Of a stretch of DNA of 64,000 bases, positions 938-45,876 are shown in pieces (positions within the stretch are counted from its first letter, which is position 1; each line of letters begins with the position of its first letter). Source of the DNA: a virus. The notes below the pieces were generated by a model. That model did not search any database, was not told the DNA's origin, and worked only from the letters and a program-made list of their open reading frames with translations. The position numbers and the translations under genes are program-made. The stretch covers positions 1 to 64,000 of IMG/VR virus record IMGVR_UViG_3300028400_000005; one strand, written 5' to 3'.

Positions 938-997
938 AACCTTACACCGGCGAGGCCTCGGCGTGTAAGGTTCGGGGGCGATAAGAGGGTTTATCGG
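938..997. repeat. Dispersed element copy 1: AACCTTACAC-N15-GTGTAAGGTT plus GCGATAA-N6-TTATCGG
   Basis: Seen directly. It shares an exact 20 bp (aggcctcggcgtgtaaggtt) with the copy at 33801-33859. Confidence 0.8.
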
Positions 998-3273: not shown

Positions 3274-4734
3274 TTACTTAAAGGGCTTCCAGGACGCCAG
3301 CGGCGAGACGAAGTTCTTGACGACGAAGTGGTGGTTGGGGATGGAGAGCTGCAGCGCGCCGTAGAGCAGCACCGCCCACGGGATCACGGCCTTGTTCGTG
3401 GGGTAGAGGGGGAACTGCGTGGCGGGCAGCAGCTGGATCCACGAGATGGACTCGGGATCGCGGTTGAGGAGGTAGAGCTTGGAGCTCCCGGGGATGTCCT
3501 CGTTCTTGTCCTCGAAGACCGTGTCGGCCGTGCGGTCCGCGTTCGCGGGGATGCGCTTGACCAGGCGGTACTCGCCGAGGTCGGGGGCCGAGGCCGGGTC
3601 CTGGGTGCTGCGGTAGATCGCGTAGCCGGTCTGCTTGCGGTCGGCGTTGGGGGTGATGGTGAGGGTGATGCTGCCGTCGGCGGCCACCGCACCCGAGACC
3701 GCGGTGCTGGGGATGCCCTCGACGCCGCGCTCGTCAATCGCGGCCACGACGTAGTAGTAGGTGCCCGCCTTGGCGGCATCGAAGCGGGAGCCGGCGCCGA
3801 CGTTGGCGGTGGCGCTGACGGTCGGCGCGCCCGGGGCGTCGTCGGGGACCCGGCCGTACTTGGCGAAGGCCGGCTTGGCGTTCTCGGGGCCCTCGATCCA
3901 GATGTCCTGCTCGGTGAAGACGTTGCCGTAGCTGGTGCGGATCGCCGTCACCGGAGCGCCCAGCTGGAGCGAGGCGGGGTTGTTGTCCAGGTTGACGCGG
4001 TAGGCGGGGTCGAGGTAGCGGTCCAGCGCCGCCTGGGTGATGGGGTCCATGTAGACGTGGGTCAGCTTCCCGAAGTTGCCCTCGCCCAGGACCTCCGCGA
4101 ACGAGGCGTAGATGGTGTCCACGATCGCGCCCACGTCGCTCGAGCCCTGTGCGTCCTTGATGTGCGAGCCACCGCGCCAGCCGCGCAGGATCGCCTCGAT
4201 GCCGTCGAACTGCATCGGGGCCACCGAGGCGTCGCCGTGGTACATGGACCAGTTGGCCGCGCGCGAGAGACGCAGGAGAGCGTTGGTGTTCTCGCGCGCC
4301 TTCAGGGGCACGATGGTCTTCTGCACCGAGGCGACGTGGGAGACCTGCGCCTGGGTCATGAGGTACTTCACGAAGGTGATCTGGCGCTCGTACTCGCCGA
4401 CCTCAGCACCGATGTCCCCGGTCTCGGAGTTGAAGGCGCCGCCAGGCTGGCCGCCGATGCTGGTCTGGACGGTGTACTCATGCACCGAGCTGCCGACCGG
4501 CTGGCGCTTCAGGGCCCGGAAGAGCTTGAAGCTCTCCTCCTTTTCGATCACCTTCTTGAGCGTGGTCTCGAGGCTTTCCACGCGCAGCCCGCCCACGCCG
4601 GTGAGCTGGCTGTGGTCCGTCTCGTAGGTCGAGGTCTGGATCGCCTTGGCGAACGCGTTCCAGTCCTCGAAAGTCTCGATGCCTCCGGCGGGGATGCCCG
4701 CGCCGCTGATGACTCCTTCTCCCAGTCCGTGCAT
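3274..4734 (-). CDS. Major capsid protein, Herelleviridae (K/A511/SPO1)-like
   Basis: FAKAIQTSTYETD..GGLRVESLE N-terminus, an Ig/FN3-like insertion and the C-terminal FEDKNEDIPG..LLP..AVLLYGALQL..VKN all resemble K-like capsid proteins. Confidence 0.9.
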   Translation of the reverse strand: MHGLGEGVISGAGIPAGGIETFEDWNAFAKAIQTSTYETDHSQLTGVGGLRVESLETTLKKVIEKEESFKLFRALKRQPVGSSVHEYTVQTSIGGQPGGAFNSETGDIGAEVGEYERQITFVKYLMTQAQVSHVASVQKTIVPLKARENTNALLRLSRAANWSMYHGDASVAPMQFDGIEAILRGWRGGSHIKDAQGSSDVGAIVDTIYASFAEVLGEGNFGKLTHVYMDPITQAALDRYLDPAYRVNLDNNPASLQLGAPVTAIRTSYGNVFTEQDIWIEGPENAKPAFAKYGRVPDDAPGAPTVSATANVGAGSRFDAAKAGTYYYVVAAIDERGVEGIPSTAVSGAVAADGSITLTITPNADRKQTGYAIYRSTQDPASAPDLGEYRLVKRIPANADRTADTVFEDKNEDIPGSSKLYLLNRDPESISWIQLLPATQFPLYPTNKAVIPWAVLLYGALQLSIPNHHFVVKNFVSPLASWKPFK

Positions 4735-4753
4735 TCGTTTCCTCCTCTTTGAC

Positions 4754-5464
4754 TTACTTCAGTTCGAGCTTGGCGCGCTCTTCGGCGGTCAGGCTGGACA
4801 GCATGCCTTCGGCGTCACCGCTGTGGTAGTAGTGTTCGACCTGGGCCATCCGCACCGGGTCGTCCACGACCTCAGCCGCCTTGGCGAAGATCTCTCGCAG
4901 GGAGTCCACCTGCTTGCGGGTGGGTACCGAGACGGTCTTCGACTTCGGGCGCCGGGGGGTCTCGTCGGTGAGGACCTGGTGCGCCTTGACCAGGACCCCC
5001 AGGCCGGCGTTCTGCTCGACGAGCGCCTTGACCAGGGTGGCGTTCTGGGCCTCGAGCTGCCGCACCCGCTCGGCCAGGGCGTCCAGCTTCGCCAGCTTGG
5101 CGTCAATCGCCTCCAGGAGCGGGGTGGCGTCTACGAAGCCGTCGGCCGCCTTGGCCATGGGCTCCTCGTCGCCGGTCGGGCCGGGGACCGGCACCGTGCC
5201 GTCCTCGCTTTCGCCCTTCGGGGCGTCGTCGTCCTGCTTCTCGCAGTCCTCTTCGCCCTCGGGGCAGTCGTCGTCGCCGTCCTTGTCGGGCCCGCCCTCG
5301 CCCACCTCGTCCTCGGTGGGTTCGGGATGGTCGAGGCCGGCGAAGTCCTCGTCGGGGTCTTCGCCGCCCTCGGCCGGGTCGAACTCCTGGGCCTTGGCCA
5401 GGAGTTCGGCGGCCCGCTCGAGCGCGGCTTCGCCTTCTTGGAGCATCTTTTCATGGTCGGCCAT
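4754..5464 (-). CDS. Capsid scaffolding protein (acidic, coiled coil)
   Basis: Lies between protease and capsid genes. Very acidic, with several x-K-A motifs. GGAGG precedes the second Met (5464). Confidence 0.7.
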   Translation of the reverse strand: MADHEKMLQEGEAALERAAELLAKAQEFDPAEGGEDPDEDFAGLDHPEPTEDEVGEGGPDKDGDDDCPEGEEDCEKQDDDAPKGESEDGTVPVPGPTGDEEPMAKAADGFVDATPLLEAIDAKLAKLDALAERVRQLEAQNATLVKALVEQNAGLGVLVKAHQVLTDETPRRPKSKTVSVPTRKQVDSLREIFAKAAEVVDDPVRMAQVEHYYHSGDAEGMLSSLTAEERAKLELK

Positions 5465-6428: not shown

Positions 6429-6451
6429 ACCCTAGAAGCGGCGGCGGTGTG
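6429..6451 (-). promoter_or_regulatory. Late-promoter motif
   Basis: cacACCGccgccgcttc-TAGGGT-6 nt-GTG 6422. Confidence 0.7.
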
Positions 6452-6477
6452 ACAGCGAGCTGGACTGGAACGAAAAC

Positions 6478-6509
6478 GACCCCCGCGGGCCTTACCCGCG
6501 GGGGCGTCG
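6478..6509 (-). terminator. Intrinsic terminator of the 7452-6527 operon
   Basis: ccccgcggg-cctta-cccgcgggg stem followed on the minus strand by a T-rich run. Confidence 0.6.
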
Positions 6510-6526
6510 CGTCGCTTCCTGTGCGC

Positions 6527-7141
6527 CTACGTCCGGGCGGGCTCCACCATCAGCTCGGGGGGCATCCGGTTGGGGGCGCGGACCCCGGACCAATGTGCGT
6601 AGCCAAACTCCTCCCAGATGCGCCCGAAGTGGCCCTCGCCGAAGTCCTGGACGCTGTAGCCGCAGATCACCGAGCGCTCGCCCACCGAGCACGGCACCTC
6701 CACCCCGGACTTGATCGAGAGGGCGTCGCGGTTGTCGTCCATGAAGACCCGCGCCAGCCAGAGGGGCACCTCGCCGGCGCGCTCGTGGATCTCCTTGGGC
6801 ACCGTCGCCGAAAGCACGCCGTACACGGTGAAGGGGTCCATCCCGTCAAGGGCCTGGTCGAGCGTGTCGCCCTTGCCGGCGAACTTGACGATGATCCGGC
6901 CACCGCTCGCCTTGAACTCGAGCTGCGCCGTCGCGACGTACCAGCGCTCGGTCGCCTCATCCGCGACGCCCCGGTCCCACGGGCCCCGCGTGTACAGGGC
7001 AGCCTGCACGCTGTCCAGCTTCAGCGGGAAGTCGTGCCGCGCCATGGCCGCGACCACGCGGCGGGTCCCCTCCATCTGGAGCGGGGTCTTCAGCACCACC
7101 ACGTCCTGCCGCTTCTCCCACATGCCGTTTTCGACCTTCAT
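6527..7141 (-). CDS. Hypothetical protein
   Basis: Coupled to the upstream gene (ATGA overlap) with a GAGG RBS. Confidence 0.65.
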   Translation of the reverse strand: MKVENGMWEKRQDVVVLKTPLQMEGTRRVVAAMARHDFPLKLDSVQAALYTRGPWDRGVADEATERWYVATAQLEFKASGGRIIVKFAGKGDTLDQALDGMDPFTVYGVLSATVPKEIHERAGEVPLWLARVFMDDNRDALSIKSGVEVPCSVGERSVICGYSVQDFGEGHFGRIWEEFGYAHWSGVRAPNRMPPELMVEPART

Positions 7142-7452
7142 ACCTCTCCCCCTTTCACCCAGCGCTGCAACCGCTCGGCGGCGCGCTCGATGTTGCTTCG
7201 CCCCACGGGGTTCGCGGAGTGGCTTACGATCCGGGGCAGCTCGCGCAGGTCATGGGCGACCACGTAGCGCTCGAGCCAGTTGATGAAGTCGTAGCCGGTC
7301 TCCCCTTCCCCGAGGTCGTGGTCGAGGCTGATCTCCTCTACCCCCTCGAGGCCGTGGCCCTCCACCCACGCCCGGAGCTCCGCGGCGGTACGGAACAACC
7401 GGTATCCCGGGGGTGGTGTGCGCAGGTCATCGAGGAACAGCCGTAGACTCAT
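7138..7452 (-). CDS. Cyclic-phosphate-processing receiver-like (cREC) domain protein
   Basis: LFLDDLR, ISLDHDLG, TGYD and HSANPVG motifs. Start at MSLRLF (7452) after GGAG. Confidence 0.8.
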   Translation of the reverse strand: MSLRLFLDDLRTPPPGYRLFRTAAELRAWVEGHGLEGVEEISLDHDLGEGETGYDFINWLERYVVAHDLRELPRIVSHSANPVGRSNIERAAERLQRWVKGGEV

Positions 7453-7470
7453 CGTGTCTCCCTTCTGCGC

Positions 7471-7504
7471 GTCCATTATACCGGACAGACGGGAAATCAT
7501 GCAA
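7471..7504 (-). promoter_or_regulatory. Promoter (TTGCAT / TATAAT) with operator GTCC-N8-GGAC (7471-7486)
   Basis: Seen directly. Confidence 0.8.
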
Positions 7505-7620
7505 GCATTTTGCGGCACCTTCCCCTTACCGGGTGTTGGCCGCGCCGGTTTTAGGGGGCATACAATCGGTGGGTCTGTACGTGCCGATGTACACGGCCTG
7601 CATCCGTGCTAACATGAGGC

Positions 7621-7648
7621 ATGCGCGATAATGTCTATTATCGCTTCG
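7621..7648. other. dif-like tyrosine recombinase site GCGATAA-TGTCTA-TTATCGC
   Basis: 7-bp arms around a 6-bp spacer. It resembles E. coli dif (tgcgcataatgtatattatg) and lies about 65 bp upstream of the recombinase gene. Confidence 0.7.
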
Positions 7649-7711
7649 TACACCAGGCTCCGGCCCCGGGTTTTCTCGCTCTCCTTCCACCTTGGCCCCT
7701 AGGGTGGTCAC

Positions 7712-8671
7712 ATGGCTAGAGGCGGTTACCGCGGCGAGGCGTTTCCATGGGGGGCGGTCAAGCCCGAGCGGCGAGCTGAGAAGGTGCGCGCGATGCTCGA
7801 GGCCGGCGACCGGGCCGGCCTGTGGGCCCTGGTCAAGCACCACCTCATGACCTGGGGGCGTGCGGGCGCGGCGACGAGCCCCCACACCCTGCGCACCTAC
7901 CGCACCGGGCTGAACAGCTTCCTCGACTACCTGGCCGAGCTCGGGCTCGAGGGGGAGCTGCTGGCCGAGGCGGTCCTCGATCCGTCGGAGGACCTGGGGG
8001 CTGAGTACCTGCGCCACCTGCAGCGTCACCACGCCCCCGCCACCGTGAACAACCGCCGGGCGGCGGCGCGGGCCTTCTACCGGGCGCTGCAATGGGCCCG
8101 GGCCACGCAGACCAACCCCTTCGACCTGGCCCCGACCGTGCGGGACCCGACGCCGCGCCACGAGAAGCGCCGCCCCTACGAGGACGACGAAATCAAGCGG
8201 TTGACCCGAGAAGCGGACCCGCACGAGCGGGTCATGGTGCTGCTCGGGGCCCAGGGCGGGCTGCGCATCTCGGAGGCGGCGCGGCTTCGCTGGGACGACG
8301 TGGACCTCGGGGCGAAGCGGATCACGATCCGGGACGGCAAGGGAGGGAAGACGGCGAGCGTCCTCATCCCCAAGGGGCTGCGCGCCGCGCTCCGCGCCCT
8401 TCGCAAGGCCGAACCCGAGGGCGAGTACGTGCTGCCCTGGCGTACGCCTGCGAGCATCCGGCGCCGGCTCAAAGCGCTGTGCGACCGGGCCGGCGTACGC
8501 TACAAGGGCTACCACGCCCTGCGGCACTACTGCGGCACCTACATCTACCAGCAGACGGGCGACCTGAACACGGCCGCCCGCCAGCTGCGGCACTCCCAGC
8601 TGCAGACGACCGCGATCTACGCAAAGTGGGCTGAGGAGATGGCGCGCGAGCTCCTGGACGGCTGGGACTAG
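7712..8671 (+). CDS. Tyrosine recombinase (XerC/D-like integrase or resolvase)
   Basis: Catalytic R (GLRISEA), K (GKGGK), HxxR (HALRH), H (LRHS) and Y (TTAIY). Confidence 0.95.
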   Translation: MARGGYRGEAFPWGAVKPERRAEKVRAMLEAGDRAGLWALVKHHLMTWGRAGAATSPHTLRTYRTGLNSFLDYLAELGLEGELLAEAVLDPSEDLGAEYLRHLQRHHAPATVNNRRAAARAFYRALQWARATQTNPFDLAPTVRDPTPRHEKRRPYEDDEIKRLTREADPHERVMVLLGAQGGLRISEAARLRWDDVDLGAKRITIRDGKGGKTASVLIPKGLRAALRALRKAEPEGEYVLPWRTPASIRRRLKALCDRAGVRYKGYHALRHYCGTYIYQQTGDLNTAARQLRHSQLQTTAIYAKWAEEMARELLDGWD

Positions 8672-8689
8672 GCCCGGCCACAAGGGAGC

Positions 8690-8714
8690 GGGCCGCCCCG
8701 CGGGGCGGCCCTTT
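8690..8714. terminator. Terminator hairpin between convergent genes
   Basis: gggccgcccc-gc-ggggcggccc-ttt. Confidence 0.7.
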
Positions 8715-8735
8715 GCGCAAGAACACCGTCGGCGT

Positions 8736-8948
8736 TCACGAGAAGGCGTCGAAGCTCTTGGCGTAGCGGTAGGGGTCGTCGAGCGGCGTGTTGCTCGACA
8801 CGTACGAGACACCGAAGCCCTTGGTGACCGGGTACTTCTTGAGCAGGCGGCTGCGCACCGTCTTGCGGTCGCCGTTGACGGGCACCACGGCCACCTTGGA
8901 ACCGTCCGAGGCCCGGGTCACCACGTAGTAGTCGTAGCTCTTGCTCAT
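8736..8948 (-). CDS. Small hypothetical protein (70 aa)
   Basis: Has its own promoter/operator and a GAGGGGG RBS. Confidence 0.7.
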   Translation of the reverse strand: MSKSYDYYVVTRASDGSKVAVVPVNGDRKTVRSRLLKKYPVTKGFGVSYVSSNTPLDDPYRYAKSFDAFS

Positions 8949-8968
8949 CTCGTACCCCCTCTCTGCAT

Positions 8969-9002
8969 GTCCAGTATACCAGACACCGGCCCCGTCCGCA
9001 AG
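8969..9002 (-). promoter_or_regulatory. Promoter (TTGCGG / TATACT) with operator GTCC-N8-AGAC (8969-8984)
   Basis: Seen directly. Confidence 0.8.
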
Positions 9003-9004
9003 CG

Positions 9005-9805
9005 TCAGTTCTGCAGCTTGTGGGCGGGGAACTCGAGCCCGTACTTCTTGACCCGCGGCGGGGCCTTGGGGAAGTCGGGGCCGATCTTGCCGCCGTTGGC
9101 GTGGAGGTGGTCGCTGACCTGCTTCATGTACGCCACGCCCTCACGCTTGACGGCCTCGCGCTCGTGCGCGGGCACCAGCTTCCGCAGGTTGTCGTCCTTG
9201 TAGAAGTTGTCGTGGGCGTGGTCGGCCCAGACGTTCTGCCAGGGGTGCCGCAGCTGCACCTCGAGCCGCTGCCCCTTGTGCCCGATGCCGTTGAAGTGCA
9301 CCGAGCGGTAGCCGTCGCGCGAGCCGTCGTGCACCTCGTGCTCCAGCACCTTGAGGTGGGGGTGGGGGTTGTCCATCAGGCTCTTGAGGCGGCGGTGGGC
9401 CTCCTCGAAGTGGGCCGGGTCGTGCACGGTCACGCGCAGGCCCACGGTATCGCCCAGGCGGTTGAAGTGGCGCGGCTGCTTGCCCGGGCGCCCCATCTTC
9501 TCCGCGACCTTGTACGGCTCCTTGATGCGGCCGCCGATCTGCACGTTCAGCCCCTGCAGCACCTTTTCCAGGTGCGCCTTGGCGCGGTCGTGGGCCTCTT
9601 CGGCGATCGGATGCAGGTGCTCGGAGATGTGCTGCTGGACTTCCGGCGCGGTGTGCGGCACCCAGCGGCGCCCGCTGGGGGTCTTCACCCGCACCATCAT
9701 CCGGCCGCTGGGAAGCACGCGCATGGCGCTCGCGCCCTGGGCCTTGGCGAGGAGCGAGAGGGCCAGCTCGACGAGCGAAAAGGAAGACGCTAGGGTGCGA
9801 TCCAT
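9005..9805 (-). CDS. RelA/SpoT-type small alarmone synthetase-like nucleotidyltransferase
   Basis: GRIK..K, D..GLRV, GYRSVH, EVQLR and WA..H motifs. Confidence 0.88.
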   Translation of the reverse strand: MDRTLASSFSLVELALSLLAKAQGASAMRVLPSGRMMVRVKTPSGRRWVPHTAPEVQQHISEHLHPIAEEAHDRAKAHLEKVLQGLNVQIGGRIKEPYKVAEKMGRPGKQPRHFNRLGDTVGLRVTVHDPAHFEEAHRRLKSLMDNPHPHLKVLEHEVHDGSRDGYRSVHFNGIGHKGQRLEVQLRHPWQNVWADHAHDNFYKDDNLRKLVPAHEREAVKREGVAYMKQVSDHLHANGGKIGPDFPKAPPRVKKYGLEFPAHKLQN

Positions 9806-33800: not shown

Positions 33801-33859
33801 CCTTACATGGGCTAGGCCTCGGCGTGTAAGGTTTCAGGGGCGATAATCGCCCTTATCAG
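33801..33859. repeat. Dispersed element copy 2: CCTTACAT-N15-GTGTAAGGTT plus GCGATAA-N6-TTATCAG
   Basis: Seen directly. Confidence 0.8.
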
Positions 33860-34302: not shown

Positions 34303-34385
34303 AATCTAGCCCAGCGCCTAGGCATCTGTCAACCCCCGTTGACAAACCGCTGCATCTGTGCGTAGGATGGTCTCGCAATGGAGAC
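34303..34385. promoter_or_regulatory. Back-to-back promoters (TGTCAA-cccccg-TTGACA) with operator GTCT-N8-AGAC at 34370-34385
   Basis: Rightward TTGACA / TAGGAT and leftward TTGACA / TAGATT. The operator covers ATG 34378. Confidence 0.75.
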
Positions 34386-34812
34386 AAACGTCAAAGCGTC
34401 GGAAAATAGTCGCACTCCAACTGCGGCGATTCGTGTTACCGGGGTCAGACCCGGCCCCGACCTGCAGATGCGCGTCGGCCCACACGCCGGCTTCACCGCC
34501 ATCGCACGGCGTGACCTGGGGCGCTACTACGCGCTGCTCGACCACGTGCGCGACGGCATGCGTGGGCGCTTCACCGCCGATGAACTCGACGCGCTCGCGG
34601 ACCACCTCACCGCGACGCCCATGTTGGACCTCCCCGAAGCGCTGGCCGTCGTGCCCCACATTCTACTGGAGGCCGCCGAACGCGGCCTGCTCGACGAAGG
34701 CCTAGCCGAGCGGGTGCGGCAACTGACCCACGCGGAGCGCTGGGCGCTCGTGGACGCGGCCGAGGTGGTGTCCTCCGGCACGGCCTCCTGGGCCGATCTA
34801 GGGATGGTCTGA
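34378..34812 (+). CDS. Putative DNA-binding protein, paralogue of 44221-44682
   Basis: Shared ARRDL.RYY..L....G.R.RF and RVR.L..AER.ALVDA motifs. Confidence 0.7.
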   Translation: METNVKASENSRTPTAAIRVTGVRPGPDLQMRVGPHAGFTAIARRDLGRYYALLDHVRDGMRGRFTADELDALADHLTATPMLDLPEALAVVPHILLEAAERGLLDEGLAERVRQLTHAERWALVDAAEVVSSGTASWADLGMV

Positions 34813-34814
34813 TC

Positions 34815-35822
34815 ATGGGCAGCCTCCACGACGGCCGAATCAAAAACTTCTGGTGGGGACCCAACGCCCTGGTAGACGACGGGCATCTCGAGCGCATGGG
34901 TCCCCACGCCGTTTCGGTGTACGTGGCGCTGCTGCGCTACTCGGACAACGACCGCCGCTCGTGGCCCAAGGTCGAAACCCTGGAGCGCCTGACCGGCATC
35001 TCTCGCGCCCAGGTCTACCGCGCGCTCGCGCGCCTCGAAGAGCTGGGCTACGTATCCCGCGAGCGTGACGGCCGGCGCAACGTCTACCATCTGCTGCAGC
35101 TCCCCACGGCATCCCCCGCCGACCCGCCCGTGAAACAGGTCTCAGGCAGAGACGTTTCCAGCGAAAAGGTCTCAGAGGGAGACCCTTCGGGGGAAAGGGT
35201 CTCAGACAGAGACAAAAAGGGTCTCAGACAGAGACGTGTAAGGTCTCAGACAGAGACGTATGGTGACACCGAGAGCGCGCGTCCTGGACGGGAAAAACTC
35301 CCCCAAAATGCAGGCCGAAGAAAACAAATAGAAAAAGACCTAGGGAAGAAAACAACACAAGAAGAAGAAGAAGAAGAAGCGGCCGCTCACGAAAATCTCA
35401 GAAAGGAACCGCCCCCCTACGCCTCGGTGTTCGCCACCCCGGCCGCGATGAAGGACGCGGTGTTGCATGCGGCGCTGCGCGGTGCCCCCGAGCGCCGCAT
35501 CCGTATGCTGGCGGACCTCGTCGAGGCTGGGGTGTGGGAAAAGTTGCGCGCGCTCGCGCGCGAAAACCGCCGCGGCGCGCGCGCGTGGCACGACTGGCTC
35601 GATCAGCTGTCGCGGCAGCTCGAGGGCCGGCCGGACGGCCTCGAGCGGCTGCGCCAGGCTCTCGAGGCGCTTACCCCGGACATCGAACGCCCCTTTGCGT
35701 GGGTGACGCGGTTCCTGAGCACCGAGGCCCCGACGCCGGCGCCTAAGCGGGCGCCGGCGCGGAACGCAGGCGTAGGCGACGGCGTGGAAGTGGACATGCG
35801 CGGTGTGTACATGGAGGACTGA
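34815..35822 (+). CDS. Replication initiator (N-terminal wHTH, internal iterons)
   Basis: SWPKVETLERLTGISRAQVYRALARLEELGYV HTH, followed by a DnaC-like gene. Confidence 0.85.
   Translation: MGSLHDGRIKNFWWGPNALVDDGHLERMGPHAVSVYVALLRYSDNDRRSWPKVETLERLTGISRAQVYRALARLEELGYVSRERDGRRNVYHLLQLPTASPADPPVKQVSGRDVSSEKVSEGDPSGERVSDRDKKGLRQRRVRSQTETYGDTESARPGREKLPQNAGRRKQIEKDLGKKTTQEEEEEEAAAHENLRKEPPPYASVFATPAAMKDAVLHAALRGAPERRIRMLADLVEAGVWEKLRALARENRRGARAWHDWLDQLSRQLEGRPDGLERLRQALEALTPDIERPFAWVTRFLSTEAPTPAPKRAPARNAGVGDGVEVDMRGVYMED
35138..35257 (+). repeat. Five iterons GGTCTCAGACAGAGAC followed by an A-rich tract: lambda-type origin
   Basis: Copies start at 35138, 35168, 35198, 35220 and 35242. The A-rich stretch is about 35290-35405. 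Confidence 0.85.
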
Positions 35823-35823
35823 C

Positions 35824-36615
35824 ATGGGCGACGCCCCGGAGAAGGATCAGGAGAACCCCTTTCTGGCGCTGGTCGAGGAAATCCGCTCGAAGAACCCGCC
35901 GGCGGCGCGGGTCGAGTCCGACCACGAGTGCTTCGACGGGATGGTCGAGGACGACAAGGGCCGCTGGGTGCCGTGCCCGGTGTGCAAGGCGCGGCGCGAC
36001 GAAGCCATGCTGCGCATGCGCCTCCAGTCGTCGGGGATCGCGGAGCGCTACCTCGACGTGGGCTGGGACGACCTCGAGATGCTGCCGCCCTTCCCGCTGG
36101 TGCGAAGCGTGGCCGAGCGCATCGGCGACCTGATCCACGCCGGCGAGTCCGCGGTGTTTACGGGGCCGGTGGGGACGGGCAAGACCCAGGCCGGGCTGCT
36201 CCTGGTGCGGGCTGCGGTGCGCGCCGGGTTCGAGGCGCGGGTCGTCAACGTCGGCTGGCTGGGGGTTGAGGTGCGCTCCACCTGGAACGGCGGTGAGGGC
36301 ATCACGGAAAACGAGGCCGTGCGCCTCATGGCTCAGCCCGACCTGCTGCTGCTCGACGACGTGGGGGCCGGCGAAACCCGCAACGCCGAGCTCGAGCGCC
36401 GCCTCCTCTACCTCGCCCTCGAGGCGCGGAACCAGAACCGGCGCCCGACGATCATCACGACCAACCTCGGGGTTGGGTCAAAATCGGCCTCGCGCGCCAC
36501 ATTGGAGCAGTACCTTGGAGGGCGGATATGGGACCGCCTCAAGCCGCTCCGGGTGGTGGCCTTCAAGCACGGGAAAAACTTCAGGGAGCGGGAGATTAGC
36601 GTATGGGCAAACTGA
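35824..36615 (+). CDS. DnaC/IstB-like AAA+ helicase loader
   Basis: CPVC, GPVGTGKT, LLLLDDVG and PTIITTN. Confidence 0.9.
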   Translation: MGDAPEKDQENPFLALVEEIRSKNPPAARVESDHECFDGMVEDDKGRWVPCPVCKARRDEAMLRMRLQSSGIAERYLDVGWDDLEMLPPFPLVRSVAERIGDLIHAGESAVFTGPVGTGKTQAGLLLVRAAVRAGFEARVVNVGWLGVEVRSTWNGGEGITENEAVRLMAQPDLLLLDDVGAGETRNAELERRLLYLALEARNQNRRPTIITTNLGVGSKSASRATLEQYLGGRIWDRLKPLRVVAFKHGKNFREREISVWAN

Positions 36616-38033
36616 GCTATGACGACCTGGTCGATCCGGCCCGCTGGGACGTGGTGGGCTACGAGATCGGCTTGGATGACCTGGGCGAGTTTGAACCCGA
36701 CGACATCGTGCGCAGCCGTCGCGCTCAGCTGCTGATGCGTCAGGAACGTTATGAAGAAGCGCTCCTCGAGCTCGACCGCGTAGAGGGACCTCCGGGATCG
36801 GGGTTGCGCCGGCTGGCGCGGCTGGGCCTTGGGCTCTACGAGCGGGTGCTGCAATCCGAACCCACGCCCGCGGAAACCCTGAACCCCATCGAGCTCGAGG
36901 AGCAGTTCTACTTCGCCTTTGCCCGGGCGGGTGCGGCCAGCCAGCTCGGCAAGCTGGACCTGGCGCTGCAGCACAACGCCGTGGCGGAGTTCATCGCCCG
37001 CACCCTGCGCATGGAGCGCCGTCTCCACGTCGTTCATGCGGACATCCTGCGCATTCGCAACCTGATGGGCGACCCCCAGCCCGAGGAAATGGCCGGACTC
37101 TACGCGATCATGGGGCGCTGGAACCGGCGCCTGAGCCTGTGGGGGCGGCGCACCCTCGTGGAGATGCACCTGGCGCGCGGGGACTACACCAGGGCGCACC
37201 GTGACGCTCGGGGCGATTCGGCCCTCGAGGCGTTCACCGGCATGCTGGCCTGCGACGGAACCGCGCGCCCCAGCAACGGCGATCACGGGGCCATCGCCAA
37301 CATCGCGCAAAGCGTTCTGGGCGGCCACTACCTGCCCGATGACGTTGCCTCGCAGCCGTACAGCGACTACGCCCGGGTGATCCGCGCCTACGGGCTGCTG
37401 CGCCGGGGGCATCCGACGGCCGCCATGCGCCACCTGGGACCCAAGCCCCCGGGCTTCCCCGACCAGCGCGTCTACTGGGGCGGGGTCGCGCTGCTGGCGC
37501 TGGCGCACGCCGGCAGCAGCGGACTTCCCCCGTTCGACCCCCTGTCCATCGCGGACGTAGTGCACGAGGGCGTGGCGAGGATGATCTCCACCGACGGAGT
37601 GGTGTGCGTGATGCGGCGGTACATGCCCGACGCCCTGGCCGCCCTGGCCGTGCATCCCGAGACCCACCCGCACCTGGCCGGCGGGCTGGCCGAAGTACCC
37701 CTGCTGGTCGGTGGGTGGGTGGAATACCGCGGCGACCGCGTCAAGGTCCCCCCCACCCTTGGCGAGGCTGCGATCTTGCGCGCGCTGGGCGTGTCCAACG
37801 GCCGCCTGCCTACGGTCCACGCCGCCCAGGAGTCACGCTACCGGTCGTACCTTGGGCGGATGGGGCTGTCCCCGGACGAAGTCGTGAACGTGGGCGTGCT
37901 CTACCGCCTAGCGCGCACCATGGAGGGCATCGCCAACGGCGACAACGTGCGAAGCGCCCGCGCGTGGCGGCGCGTCGCCGAAGAGCTGGCCTCCAAGGCC
38001 CCGGTCTTGCAGTCCTACGACACCGGGCACTAA
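36603..38033 (+). CDS. TPR-like alpha-solenoid protein, candidate peptide receptor/regulator
   Basis: TPR-like helices (RAQLLMRQERYEEAL, ARAGAASQLGKLDLAL, LVEMHLARGDYTRA, RAYGLLRRGHPTAA). Directly followed by a secreted-peptide gene. Confidence 0.7.
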   Translation: MGKLSYDDLVDPARWDVVGYEIGLDDLGEFEPDDIVRSRRAQLLMRQERYEEALLELDRVEGPPGSGLRRLARLGLGLYERVLQSEPTPAETLNPIELEEQFYFAFARAGAASQLGKLDLALQHNAVAEFIARTLRMERRLHVVHADILRIRNLMGDPQPEEMAGLYAIMGRWNRRLSLWGRRTLVEMHLARGDYTRAHRDARGDSALEAFTGMLACDGTARPSNGDHGAIANIAQSVLGGHYLPDDVASQPYSDYARVIRAYGLLRRGHPTAAMRHLGPKPPGFPDQRVYWGGVALLALAHAGSSGLPPFDPLSIADVVHEGVARMISTDGVVCVMRRYMPDALAALAVHPETHPHLAGGLAEVPLLVGGWVEYRGDRVKVPPTLGEAAILRALGVSNGRLPTVHAAQESRYRSYLGRMGLSPDEVVNVGVLYRLARTMEGIANGDNVRSARAWRRVAEELASKAPVLQSYDTGH

Positions 38034-38042
38034 GGTGCAGGC

Positions 38043-38141
38043 ATGAAAAAGTACAGAAAGTACCTCCCCGCGCTTTTGGTCCTCGGAATCCTGCTTTGGG
38101 CCGCCATCGCCAACGCTGACCCCTGTCCGGGTTGCGTGTAG
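38043..38141 (+). CDS. 32-aa secreted pro-peptide MKKYRKYLPALLVLGILLWAAIANA|DPCPGCV, candidate signalling peptide
   Basis: Read directly, below the ORF-track cutoff. Basic N-region, hydrophobic core, A-N-A cleavage site and an AAGG RBS. Starts 9 nt after the TPR stop. Confidence 0.85.
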   Translation: MKKYRKYLPALLVLGILLWAAIANADPCPGCV

Positions 38142-38150
38142 CGCCTCTGG

Positions 38151-38206
38151 GTGTTAGTCGAGTGTTACCAAAAGCCACCCATTCCCGGTAAGGGGCGCGG
38201 TAAAAT
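38151..38206 (+). promoter_or_regulatory. Putative activator-dependent leaderless promoter with a GTGTTA direct repeat
   Basis: TAAAAT at 38201-38206 lies 6 nt before ATG 38213 with no recognisable -35. GTGTTA occurs at 38151 and 38162, 11 bp apart. Confidence 0.5.
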
Positions 38207-38212
38207 CCGAAC

Positions 38213-38404
38213 ATGGCATTGACTATGAAAACACCCACTCAGCAGGAGGCCCGAAACCGGCTCATCAAGGCCACGGAGGGCGACCTGGACAGCGAAATCG
38301 CCGCGTTTTCGATCATCGCCAAAGCCAACGAAATCGGCCAGCTGCTCCAGCAGCTGGCCCCCGAGGCGCGCGAGACCGCGCGCGAGCTTCTAAGAGCCTT
38401 GTAG
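38213..38404 (+). CDS. Small helical protein (63 aa), candidate effector/antirepressor
   Basis: Has its own -10 box and lies just after the peptide gene. Confidence 0.6.
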   Translation: MALTMKTPTQQEARNRLIKATEGDLDSEIAAFSIIAKANEIGQLLQQLAPEARETARELLRAL

Positions 38405-38815
38405 CGTCTTCTGGCCCTTCGGGGCCGCACGCAAGGCCCGATCCAGGGCCGTGAGGATCACGCTGTTCTGCGTGATCTTTTCTTTGCGGGACTGGTTCAG
38501 CCGCTCCACCGTGTCGTGGAGGACCCGGACCAGCTCCACGGGCAGCCGTTGGCTGCGCACCGGGTCGTACGGACGCGGGTTACGCCAGTACCGGGGCAGC
38601 GCGTCCGGGCGGCGCCGCGCCTCCCGCAGGAAGGCGGCGAGCGCGCGCTCAACGTAGCCCTGGATCGTGAGCCCTTCGGCCATGGCCGCGATCTTCAGCT
38701 CCTGGTACATGTCGTCCGGCATTTTGTAGGACACGATCCGCCGCAACTGCTGTTTCGGGCCGACCGGCTTCGCGCTGTGCTCCATCAGCCCCTCGTACTG
38801 GTGTTTGTTGGGCAT
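38390..38815 (-). CDS. ParA partner with tandem ribbon-helix-helix-like domains
   Basis: IVSYKMPDDMYQELKIAA..TIQGYVERAL and SQRLPVEL..ITQNSVILTALD. Directly downstream of parA. Confidence 0.7.
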   Translation of the reverse strand: MPNKHQYEGLMEHSAKPVGPKQQLRRIVSYKMPDDMYQELKIAAMAEGLTIQGYVERALAAFLREARRRPDALPRYWRNPRPYDPVRSQRLPVELVRVLHDTVERLNQSRKEKITQNSVILTALDRALRAAPKGQKTLQGS

Positions 38816-38826
38816 GGCTCCTCCTG

Positions 38827-39624
38827 TTAGCGGCTGGGCACCAGCTCGGCCCGTTCCGCGACCCAGTCCCCCAGCGCCATGTAGTCAATCGCGCCCGGGG
38901 ACCGGGGCTTGTACTCGAAGATGGTCAGCCCGCGCTCCGGCGCTTCGGCGAGGTGGACGTTGCGCCGGATGTGACCGGCGTAGGTGGGCCCGTAGGCCTC
39001 CTGCAGGTCGGGCACGAGGTTGCGGGACAGACGTTCGCGTCGGTCGATCATCGTGGCCAGCACGCCCATCAGCGCCGGCGCGTAACCGAGGCGGTCGCGC
39101 ATGGCGCGCAGGCGCGTTCGCAGCCCCTCCACCCCGGCCCGGGTGGCCGCACCGGGGGCCACGGGCACGATGACGGCGTCGGCCGCGTAGAGGGCGAGCA
39201 GGCTGGCCAGGTTGACGGTGGGGCCCACGTCTATGATCACGAGCTGGTAGCGGTCGCTGACCTCCTTAAGCCGCTCGGCCAGGATCATGTGCCGGTCTTC
39301 GCGGCCGGCGATCTCGAGCTCGGCTTGGGCGATGCGGGGGTTGTTGGGGATGAGGTCGAGCCCGTCGCGCACGTTCAGGGTGATGAGCTCGTCGGCGGGG
39401 CGGTAGGTCGGGTCGAGCGGGTCCGAAAACACCAGCATCTCGTACATCCCCGCGCGGTCCTCCCCCTCCGTGGTGAACCCCAGGAACATGCCCGCCTGCC
39501 CCTGCGAGTCCATGTCCACGAGCAGCACCTTGCCTACGCGGTCGGCCAGGTAGGCCGCAAGGTTGACCGCGGTGGTGGTCTTCCCCACCCCGCCCTTTTC
39601 AGCAGCGATAGCCAGGACCATCAT
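38827..39624 (-). CDS. parA: ParA/Soj partition ATPase
   Basis: KGGVGKTT, VDMDSQG, IIDVGP and EAP..G..IFEY.P.S. Confidence 0.95.
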   Translation of the reverse strand: MMVLAIAAEKGGVGKTTTAVNLAAYLADRVGKVLLVDMDSQGQAGMFLGFTTEGEDRAGMYEMLVFSDPLDPTYRPADELITLNVRDGLDLIPNNPRIAQAELEIAGREDRHMILAERLKEVSDRYQLVIIDVGPTVNLASLLALYAADAVIVPVAPGAATRAGVEGLRTRLRAMRDRLGYAPALMGVLATMIDRRERLSRNLVPDLQEAYGPTYAGHIRRNVHLAEAPERGLTIFEYKPRSPGAIDYMALGDWVAERAELVPSR

Positions 39625-40262
39625 GACACCCGCTTAGGCCGCACCCACGTCACCACACCAATCACCTTGTCGCTCGGCTTGGGCGGCGGGGCCTCTTCGT
39701 CGTCGTACACGTAGCCGCCCTTGGTGGCCCACACGGCCTCGAGGCCGCTACCCAGCCGCTCGAGCACCACGAGGTCGCCCTCTTCGATCCGCTCGGTCGC
39801 CCGCACCCCCACCGGCTCGTTGAGCGGCAGACAGGCGATCCTGCCCGACGTGGGAACGAAGAGCAGGTCGCAGGGCAGCGCCGGCTCCTCGCGCCGCGCG
39901 GCGGGGCCCTGGGCGGACTCCCCCTCGAGGTAGACGGGCACCGTCACGGCGACCTTGGCCGCCGGTTCGCCGTTGGCGGGCGCCACCACGGCGAGCCCGG
40001 TCTCCTCCACGAACCCCTGGTAGTCCCCGTCCCACAGGAGGGCGACCAGGGTACGCAGCCGGGCCGGCGAGAGGGTGCGCACGGCTACGTCGGGCTGCGT
40101 GATCAGCGTATGCAGCGTCGGGCGCGACACGCGCTCGTAGATACCGGGTTCGCGCTCGGCCAGGTCCTGGCTAAGCGCGTCCACGTCCCGCAGGCTCAGC
40201 TTGCGGGCCTTCATCCGCTGGTGTATCGCGTCCGAAAGAGACTTGGTTTTGACTGCTCCCAC
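39621..40262 (-). CDS. CI-like repressor (HTH plus degenerate S24-like domain)
   Basis: N-terminal HTH (LSLRDV..VSRPTL), C-terminal EGDLVV and VIGVV, and divergent from a Cro-like gene. Confidence 0.7.
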   Translation of the reverse strand: MGAVKTKSLSDAIHQRMKARKLSLRDVDALSQDLAEREPGIYERVSRPTLHTLITQPDVAVRTLSPARLRTLVALLWDGDYQGFVEETGLAVVAPANGEPAAKVAVTVPVYLEGESAQGPAARREEPALPCDLLFVPTSGRIACLPLNEPVGVRATERIEEGDLVVLERLGSGLEAVWATKGGYVYDDEEAPPPKPSDKVIGVVTWVRPKRVS

Positions 40263-40312: not shown

Positions 40313-40401
40313 ATTGTAGTCCAGAATATTGGATAACGCAAATGGACAGACAGCACGGCTGGCCAGCTTGCCCCCTTGTCCGTCTGTCTGTAAAATGAGA
40401 C
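40313..40401. promoter_or_regulatory. Immunity switch: divergent promoters with two operators
   Basis: Leftward TTGCGT-17-TACAAT with GTCC-N8-GGAT (40319-40334) in the spacer. Rightward TTGCCC-17-TAAAAT with GTCT-N8-AGAC (40386-40401). Confidence 0.8.
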
Positions 40402-40403
40402 AC

Positions 40404-40607
40404 ATGGAGACGATCCGCCTCAGCGAAATCCACACGCGCCTGAGCGAGCTGTCCGGCGAGCAGATCCTCGAGCTCGCTCGCCGAACCGGCATCGGCCGCT
40501 CGACCCTGTACCAGTACCGCGCCAGCCCGGAGGCGCTGAAGCGGGCTCGAGGCTCCACCCTGCTGGCCATCCAGAGGGCCCTGGATGAGGTGCGCGATGC
40601 TGCCTAG
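40404..40607 (+). CDS. Cro-like HTH protein
   Basis: ILELARRTGIGRSTLYQY, leaderless start at 40404. Confidence 0.8.
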   Translation: METIRLSEIHTRLSELSGEQILELARRTGIGRSTLYQYRASPEALKRARGSTLLAIQRALDEVRDAA

Positions 40608-45804: not shown

Positions 45805-45876
45805 ATATTCCCGCTAATAGAAATAAACGGGAATATCCCGGAACCTTACACCCCGAGGCCCTGCGGGTGTAAGGTT
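45805..45876. repeat. Dispersed element copy 3 (inverted): AACCTTACAC-N15-GTGTAAGGTT with adjacent ATATTCCCG-N14-CGGGAATAT
   Basis: Seen directly. The main palindrome is at 45842-45876. Confidence 0.75.

Follow-up and report, generated by a model that had tools for sequence, protein, structure and literature searches.

A candidate peptide-signalling module with a tetratricopeptide-repeat receptor in a probable Lalka-like plasmid-prophage of Deinococcota

Can a phage of a phylum far from the Bacillota decide its fate by a secreted peptide? The literature regards arbitrium and RRNPP quorum sensing as particular to the Bacillota and their mobile elements, and the locus described here raises this question for the Deinococcota. 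It lies in the window, a stretch of 64,000 nucleotides (nt) that forms the first 64 kb of contig C386 (79,030 bp; virus record IMGVR_UViG_3300028400_000005), the longest among the 702 contigs of its assembly. In it, the gene of a 476-amino-acid (aa) tetratricopeptide-repeat (TPR) protein, the candidate receptor, is followed by a 32-aa open reading frame (ORF), the candidate propeptide gene. An earlier note on this DNA had proposed a receptor-propeptide-effector layout of the RRNPP/arbitrium type, and this proposal is supported by the pairing, the fold and the gene order described below; the coordinates that it gave were all exact. On balance, we favour the reading that the locus is a secreted-peptide/receptor signalling module of this type, which would control the life-cycle switch of a Lalka-like plasmid-prophage of a Deinococcota host. 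What is shown, in silico, is the fold, the conservation of the pairing, the predicted interface and the order of the genes.

The 32-aa ORF (38043-38141) starts 9 nt past the receptor stop codon, and the gap carries a Shine-Dalgarno-like stretch, GGTG-AGG. Its product has a basic n-region (K2, K3, R5 and K6), a 15-residue hydrophobic core and the residues A-N-A directly before D26. The earlier description of a Sec signal with a cargo of seven residues thus stands in its first half, the signal features and the A-N-A site being present, but not fully in its second: cleavage after A25 would leave DPCPGCV, whereas cleavage after A23 (A-I-A) fits the -3/-1 rule equally well and would leave a 9-mer, so that the mature peptide would have 7 or 9 residues. 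The GC content by codon position is coding-like (0.55/0.42/0.76), and both small ORFs of the locus, the 63-aa ORF included (0.62/0.42/0.80), show the low-second/high-third pattern of real genes within DNA of 70% GC. We then defined two crude criteria from the window peptide itself, one being a signal-like N-terminus, the other a C-terminal PCxxC with 0-2 residues after it. Across the whole assembly, with 23,497 ORFs of 25-100 aa, the first applied to 165, the second to 10, and both to a single one, the window ORF.

The same arrangement recurs elsewhere. A tblastn search recovered three Deinococcus plasmids with proteins about 25% identical to the window receptor, which match the family profile with E-values of 1e-91 to 1e-154. 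The idea that receptor homologues are accompanied by a downstream propeptide gene held at all three of these independent loci: at most 30 nt from the receptor stop codon, or overlapping it, lies an ORF that satisfies both criteria. These ORFs have 49 aa in Deinococcus sp. KNUC1210 (tail DPCLGC), 48 aa in Deinococcus sp. QL22 (tail DPCPWCRP) and 81 aa in D. aquaticus (tail GPCGGC). In QL22 the peptide ATG overlaps the receptor stop codon, and both the QL22 and the KNUC1210 ORFs are unannotated. Each plasmid peptide begins with a basic, hydrophobic, A-x-A signal, and the spacer between signal and tail, often proline-rich, ranges from 0 to about 50 residues over the four peptides. In a Logan variant of the D. 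aquaticus peptide, this proline-rich linker shows insertions and deletions, and the tail is identical. The [D/G]PCxxC tail is therefore conserved in four loci and one further variant, and its cysteine pair is invariant across all peptides found. Read from these sequences, the pro-region varies, the C-terminal core is conserved and two or three positions change, which is the pattern of Phr/AimP propeptides.

Since only one of the small ORFs of the assembly shows both traits and all three plasmid ORFs do, the pairing exceeds chance. One could still argue that the two genes are neighbours by accident, or that the small ORF is untranslated and the TPR protein an unrelated phage scaffold or regulator, and the absence of the small ORF from most annotations would fit this. 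However, the same composite ORF stands beside receptors that are only distantly related, against the background given above, it either follows a Shine-Dalgarno-like stretch or overlaps the receptor stop codon with its start, and its third codon positions have coding-like GC; we regard chance adjacency as close to refuted. As a separate observation, the QL22 plasmid (NZ_CP097156.1) holds two receptor-gene copies, at 3308-4765 and 97724-99181, with identical profile scores, so the cassette there is inside a large duplication.

A complex of the two products was predicted from the receptor alignment and the uncleaved 32-aa precursor, in three runs and with three controls. The best of the three runs reached an ipSAE of 0.69, against 0.03 for the best of the three controls; in calibration, the mark set for this score was reached by 58 of 80 solved complexes and by 2 of 110 mismatched pairs. 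At least 78% of the contacts were common to the runs, with a partner pLDDT of at least 55. The contacts of lowest error join the peptide residues C28-P-G-C-V32 to receptor residues 42-48, 71-75, 102-107, 140-147 and 176-180 on the concave face. This predicted interface is more conserved than the other TPR positions (permutation p 0.0013): R140 is an arginine in 54 of the 55 aligned family members, 52 of them have E or D at position 147, and Y256 hardly varies, while the pocket positions 48, 75, 106 and 143 are among the most variable. The controlled prediction, which places the tail in the TPR groove, supports the binding that the earlier note had suggested, at the level of a model. That the receptor and peptide genes encode a cognate binding pair is, in our judgement, likely.

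In the same model, receptor position 102 (codon 36906-36908) touches the last residue of the peptide; it is Phe in the window and Cys in 24 of the 55 family members. A cysteine at this place, opposite a CxxC ligand, hints at disulfide or metal chemistry. Because Cys-x-x-Cys is invariant and a pocket cysteine occurs in so many receptors, it is tempting to speculate that the viral signal is gated by redox state or metal: the peptide would be closed by a disulfide outside the cell, then reduced or metal-loaded inside. One molecule could in that case report both carrier density and oxidative or metal stress to the lysis-lysogeny or plasmid-maintenance switch. We hold this to be a doubtful extension of the signalling model, and to our knowledge no arbitrium or other RRNPP system follows such a logic.

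The peptide chemistry could also be read in another way. CPGC resembles redox-active or metal-binding CxxC motifs, and this likeness, with the invariance of the cysteine pair, would suit a secreted peptide that is itself an effector (redox-active, metal-binding or antimicrobial), the TPR protein being its regulator or immunity factor. Against this, a maturation enzyme, a dedicated exporter and an immunity-type membrane protein are all absent nearby, seven residues are very few for a bacteriocin, and the predicted partner of the tail is the TPR protein, which is cytoplasmic; we hold the effector explanation to be very unlikely. Two further identities of the peptide were considered and rejected: a lipoprotein, as the lipobox cysteine after the signal is absent in all four peptides, and a ribosomally synthesised and post-translationally modified peptide, as neither a maturase nor an exporter is encoded nearby.

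What kind of protein is the receptor? It has no signal peptide, and the AlphaFold2 model built from the 55-sequence alignment (pLDDT 94, pTM 0.91) shows a superhelix of TPR-like helix pairs over residues 30-355 (approximate limits), followed by a beta-hairpin and five helices, as the helices noticed earlier had led one to expect. Residues 1-30 form short acidic helices with a conserved PxxWD motif. The C-terminal part, from about residue 365 to 476, combines a conserved beta-hairpin and helices with the conserved elements PLLxG, LPGRxG, R412, VNxG and W455, so that conserved residues lie outside the groove at both ends of the protein (P12, D16, R412, N429 and W455). With VIA, an exhaustive structure aligner that is independent of Foldseek and was run against 48,161 chains, the first rank went to NprR-NprX (4gpk; Z 12.8, 275 residues aligned over model residues 29-464, root-mean-square deviation 8 A). 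RapI (Z 11.5), AimR of SPbeta (Z 11.5, 288 residues aligned), the Rap of phage phi105 with its peptide (Z 11.1), phAimR (Z 10.8) and ComR (Z 9.7) also fell inside the top 36, mixed with unrelated TPR proteins of equal Z. The modelled fold is thus confirmed as TPR and is compatible with an RRNPP receptor; by itself, it does not single out RRNPP.

By sequence, the receptor and all 55 aligned members match only generic TPR families of Pfam, with weak or sub-threshold E-values, and a profile search of the family against PDB sequences returned consensus or designed TPRs and MamA only. When 1.84 billion cluster representatives were searched exhaustively with HMMER, 67 relatives came up, 48 of them at E <= 1e-10 and nearly all of 440-520 aa. 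The named members are all Deinococcus (D. ruber, D. peraridilitoris, D. cavernae, D. rufus, sp. QL22 and sp. KNUC1210), D. aquaticus being added through the plasmid search. No homologue turned up by tblastn against 50,697 phage records, and genome, metagenome and viral locus scans for relatives returned none. As far as these searches reach, the receptor belongs to a previously undescribed family of about 67 sequence clusters.

The earlier note was right that the receptor has no evident N-terminal helix-turn-helix (HTH): no HTH family matched, and the first 30 residues are the acidic helices just mentioned. Its suggestion that the last 120 or so residues might be a winged-helix output domain found no support. 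An hhalign comparison of the C-terminal domain with six Trans_reg_C domains of the same assembly gave a probability of 1.7%, and the domain modelled alone from 3 sequences folded poorly (pLDDT 56), its best structure-search Z of 4.0 being meaningless. The protein-language-model and Atlas structure neighbours of the receptor are Deinococcota and Actinomycetota TPR proteins with BTAD, Trans_reg_C, GerE or PF27103 (YTH3_C) domains; as leads to the nature of the C-terminus, the Atlas pointers to Trans_reg_C, BTAD and PF27103 are weak. BTAD, Trans_reg_C and GerE were not detected in the receptor with the libraries scanned, which do not include PF27103. One ESM Atlas neighbour is a 481-aa Deinococcota cluster (score 0.87, 177 shared features) in which 88% of the members carry PF27103. 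A newer Pfam release (38.1, PF27103 YTH3_C) may thus already model this C-terminal domain; a literature search on YTH3 yielded nothing relevant.

The features of the locus and its flanks are collected in Table 1.

Table 1. Features of the candidate signalling locus and its surroundings, in window coordinates
Feature	Position	Strand	Basis
Sigma-70-like promoter TTGACA-18-TAGGAT, likely start of the orf144-repO-dnaC-receptor-propeptide run	34339..34368	+	10/12 consensus matches
Upstream run: 144-aa unknown, O-like replication initiator (34815-35822), DnaC-like helicase loader (35803-36615)	34378..36615	+	HTH_36, phrog_270, phrog_50, IstB_IS21
476-aa TPR-superhelix protein, candidate peptide receptor, cytoplasmic	36603..38033	+	AlphaFold2 model, VIA structure matches
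Sec-type signal peptide, residues 1-25 of the 32-aa propeptide	38043..38117	+	Sequence reading; crude signal rule passed by 0.7% of small ORFs
Candidate mature signal DPCPGCV and stop codon	38118..38141	+	Tail kept in 4 loci and one variant; lowest-error contacts of the complex model
Candidate regulator-binding region: GTGTTA twice (38151, 38162; 11 bp apart), overlapping the inverted repeat TTACC-N17-GGTAA (38165-38191)	38151..38191	.	Repeat search
-10 box TAAAAT without a -35 box	38201..38206	+	CCATTC 17 nt upstream: 0/6 against TTGACA
63-aa ORF at the AimX position	38213..38404	+	Coding-like third-position GC; weak BLASTP match to a QL22 ORF
10-bp GC-rich hairpin with T-rich tail, likely terminator of the RHH-parA-repressor operon	38336..38359	-	Inside the 63-aa ORF
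Convergent operon: ribbon-helix-helix (RHH) protein (38390-38815), ParA (38827-39624), 213-aa CI/LexA-like protein (39621-40262)	38390..40262	-	AAA_31 2.9e-37, phrog_164, Arc/CopG-like
Divergent promoter TTGCCC-17-TAAAAT and Cro-like HTH gene	40368..40607	+	HTH_7, HTH_26 matches

The cassette sits at the 3' end of a tightly packed run, as had been noticed before: the ends of the upstream genes overlap or are 2 nt apart, the receptor gene shares its first 13 nt with the end of the DnaC-like gene, and terminator prediction on the + strand from the promoter at 34339 to 38141 gave only a weak site at 34409. With the earlier note we infer that this operon may be repressor-controlled and that the signal would be made on lytic entry. 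In contrast to the packed window run, the plasmid receptor genes have their own upstream intergenic region.

Behind the peptide gene comes the promoter that had rightly been described as lacking a -35 box. The ATG of the 63-aa ORF follows its TAAAAT by 6 nt, so the mRNA would be leaderless, and the same TAAAAT-then-ATG layout is seen at the divergent promoter, which ends at 40396 with an in-frame ATG at 40404; the Cro-like gene is probably leaderless from this ATG as well. All four loci have short repeats between the peptide gene and the next promoter. In the window, there is one match against 0.02 expected, for a pattern defined post hoc. The corresponding gap contains a perfect tandem 11-mer with GTTAC in QL22, a 13-mer repeated twice, 33 bp apart, in D. 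aquaticus (by eye, four GTG-type words at 11-bp spacing) and a 7-mer repeated twice, 31 bp apart, in KNUC1210. It is plausible that these repeats, whose patterns were likewise defined post hoc, are regulator sites. A related observation concerns an element of about 27 bp, TTACA(C)...GAGGCC...(G)TGTAA, with three intergenic copies in the window (942-968, 33803-33829 and 45846-45872). The pattern TTACM-N17-KGTAA has 4 matches, namely these copies and the 38165 site, against 0.01 expected. The 33803 copy forms a hairpin (-18.9 kcal/mol, z -3.0) followed by UUU, and the three copies therefore resemble terminators or structured elements more than they do operators for the TPR protein.

The 63-aa ORF has no family match in Pfam, PHROGs, NCBIfam or PADLOC. 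A 66-aa ORF at the same position in QL22 aligns with it end to end (BLASTP E 0.013), which is suggestive only. The hairpin inside the ORF lacks a T-run on the + strand, so that transcription starting at 38201 could go on antisense into RHH-parA-cI, whose CI/LexA-like product has a weak S24-region similarity to the LexA-like regulator of phage Lalka27b (E 0.025). In both the window and QL22, the receptor and peptide genes are followed by a small ORF, then by a convergent HTH/CI-like gene and a divergent Cro-like gene. The D. aquaticus plasmid has the same order minus a convincing small ORF, a hairpin with a 23-bp stem standing in its place. In the window, RHH and parA precede the convergent CI-like gene. 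In KNUC1210, the propeptide gene is followed by no small ORF and by a 993-aa MalT-like STAND ATPase-TPR protein (locus 6435-9416), which may be an alternative output partner; its C-terminal stretch looks winged-helix-like by eye.

Which element carries the module? The window encodes a portal, a minor head protein, giant DarB-like (2340 aa) and helicase proteins, a sliding clamp, a replication initiator, a DnaC-like loader, ParA, an RHH protein, and CI/LexA-like and Cro-like proteins. Its portal is 73% identical to those of the Thermus thermophilus myoviruses Lalka27b, Lalka8 and Lalka27a. Because a Lalka-like portal occurs together with the partition genes (parA and RHH), the element is likely a Lalka-like myovirus carried as a plasmid-prophage. 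The affiliation of the phage to the Deinococcota, proposed earlier, holds on the portal identity and on Deinococcus as the sole named origin of the receptor family. The Lalka genomes have no counterpart of the receptor-peptide cassette, and a Lalka-type portal was not found in the three Deinococcus plasmids bearing receptor homologues. No terminal repeat was found in the contig, and nothing like a CRISPR spacer matching the element was found elsewhere in the assembly. The contig is a tetranucleotide outlier, ranking third of 77, and it may be wrongly binned; a profile search of 400 genomes (254 genera) of the bin's own phylum gave no other member of the receptor family, so the bin gives no pointer to a Deinococcota host.

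Window DNA is present in hydrothermal-vent metagenomes of more than one study; among the public runs listed as containing it, none is an RNA data set. A 28-kb contig of depth 121 from another vent study is a variant about 3% diverged across the whole of 36500-38500, from which it differs by 59 substitutions and the loss of 3 nt at 37802. A third run yielded a 380-nt piece over 37916-38295 (receptor 3' end, peptide gene and promoter) with 3 differences only. In the receptor gene, 33 of the 40 differences listed for the vent variant fall on third codon positions, with one in-frame 3-nt deletion, and this excess shows purifying selection on the gene.

If the signalling model is right, the 32-aa product would be exported by Sec and cut by signal peptidase, which would release a peptide of 7-9 residues ending in PCPGCV; the longer pro-regions of the relatives would need further trimming. 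The peptide would build up with the number of infected or carrier cells, re-enter cells, and there bind the concave groove of the TPR protein, where the invariant R140, E/D147 and Y256 would anchor the conserved tail and the variable pocket residues would read the two x positions. The peptide-free receptor would most likely drive the -35-less promoter at 38201, giving the 63-aa product and an antisense transcript into the RHH-parA-repressor operon, away from stable carriage. Peptide binding would turn this promoter off and favour lysogeny or plasmid maintenance. In this scheme we infer secretion, re-import, the sign of regulation and the receptor's route to its output, the last because no DNA-binding domain was identified.

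The receptor may act on transcription, by way of a domain that escaped recognition, or in the manner of Rap, by binding another protein. In the latter case the same peptide-receptor pair would work differently: the receptor would sequester or inhibit a protein (the CI-like repressor, ParA/RHH or a host regulator) via its PxxWD segment or its C-terminal domain, and the peptide would free this partner. That neither an HTH nor another DNA-binding domain was detected would suit such a protein, as would the presence of Rap proteins, a phage Rap included, among the best structural matches and the conserved non-groove residues at both ends. The repeats just upstream of the -35-less promoter in all four loci suggest activator binding instead, and we consider a Rap-like output unlikely, if still deserving of serious attention.

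Nor need the peptide ever travel between cells. The small product might be an envelope or membrane factor, or stay anchored by an uncleaved signal, while the TPR protein binds its tail inside the producing cell as a chaperone, an export feedback sensor or a partner-switch regulator. Neither the pairing nor the predicted tail-in-groove binding needs export and re-import, the long proline-rich spacers of the plasmid homologues could span the envelope, and the hosts have two membranes. But the window version has only 7-9 residues beyond a textbook A-x-A site, linker length is free to change (0 to about 50 residues) with the tail alone conserved, as in Phr/AimP propeptides, and the position at a lysis-lysogeny switch matches arbitrium. 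We therefore see a role without cell-to-cell signalling as quite improbable.

Several points nevertheless weigh against the signalling model that we favour. The hosts of this clade are surrounded by an outer membrane and an S-layer, additional barriers that a secreted peptide has to pass on its way out and again on its way in. The pairing evidence comes from only four independent loci. The complex was modelled with the precursor, whose hydrophobic signal also touches the groove. As to the fold, Z values of 11-13 are also reached by many unrelated TPR proteins, the aligner itself warns that for helical repeats a Z below about 13 carries little meaning, and Foldseek with the receptor model returned generic eukaryotic TPR scaffolds only, at low TM. 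The receptor belongs by sequence to none of the RRNPP families (Rap, Rgg, NprR, PlcR, PrgX, AimR), NCBIfam, PHROGs and PADLOC scans gave it no match, and no DNA-binding domain was found in it, with no HTH family in the Pfam scans of the receptor and the 55 members. Finally, the terminator hairpin of the convergent operon falls within the 63-aa ORF, and two of the three plasmids offer no convincing counterpart of this ORF.

How does the module compare with known systems? In about 75% of Bacillus arbitrium systems, aimR-aimP-aimX is extended by a convergent repressor gene, aimC, and a cro-like gene, aimL, with AimX acting as a small antirepressor (Kabel et al., bioRxiv 10.1101/2025.11.23.689978). 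The window matches this extended layout: it has a phage-borne cytoplasmic TPR receptor and, directly behind, a short propeptide with a Sec signal and conserved C-terminal residues. A small ORF or transcript comes next, the repressor-type gene beyond it is convergent and the Cro-like gene divergent, and AimR structures are among the best fold matches. In contrast, the window receptor has no sequence similarity to AimR, lacks an N-terminal HTH and carries one more conserved domain at its C-terminus; PCxxC forms the peptide core in place of the xxxxGG/GA end of the AimP hexapeptide; and the hosts are diderm Deinococcota, the window repressor operon containing also parA and RHH, which fits a plasmid-prophage. 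Of what marks arbitrium, the gene order is thus present, and an AimR-family receptor and a GG/GA hexapeptide are not.

Similarly, Rap-Phr systems (including the phage Raps of phi105 and phi3T) share a TPR receptor without a DNA-binding domain, a propeptide gene just downstream and often overlapping, a variable pro-region with an active C-terminal end, and a frequent location on mobile elements, but the N-terminal three-helix bundle of Rap is not recognised in the window receptor and there is no sequence homology. NprR-NprX of the Bacillus cereus group is the best structural match and binds its peptide in the TPR groove, as is predicted for the window pair, whereas NprR has an N-terminal HTH, superposes with the deviation given above and has no sequence relationship to the receptor. 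The TPR regulators of the OmpR/SARP or LuxR type (BTAD/SARP, MalT-like) are Atlas neighbours of the receptor, and a MalT-like protein lies beside the KNUC1210 peptide gene; their output domains, however, were not detected in the receptor with the libraries scanned, and we know of no such regulator paired with a secreted propeptide gene.

Among the traits that define RRNPP(A) systems, the module has the cytoplasmic TPR-type sensor and the adjacent propeptide gene with an export signal and a C-terminal core, the export being a prediction; receptor sequence homology, the N-terminal HTH of all members but Rap, and a Bacillota host are lacking. For this reason we do not file it under AimR, Rap or NprR. 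It is probably a module outside the Bacillota that is RRNPP-like in function and layout and set apart from all three. The RRNPP surveys compared here do not mention Deinococcus or Thermus.

What would be new here is the same logic and layout realised with an unrelated receptor sequence, an extra, putative output domain and a two-cysteine peptide core, in phage-plasmids of the Deinococcota. Culturable carriers of relatives exist (Deinococcus sp. QL22, Deinococcus sp. KNUC1210 and D. aquaticus), as do Thermus hosts for the Lalka phages, and if the signalling model is true, a signal of 7-9 residues that is easily synthesised would be available for testing. Viral peptide communication would then extend to the distant phylum Deinococcota, whose members have an outer membrane and include thermophiles and radiation-resistant species, and the design of a TPR receptor plus propeptide would seem to have arisen or spread far more widely than thought.

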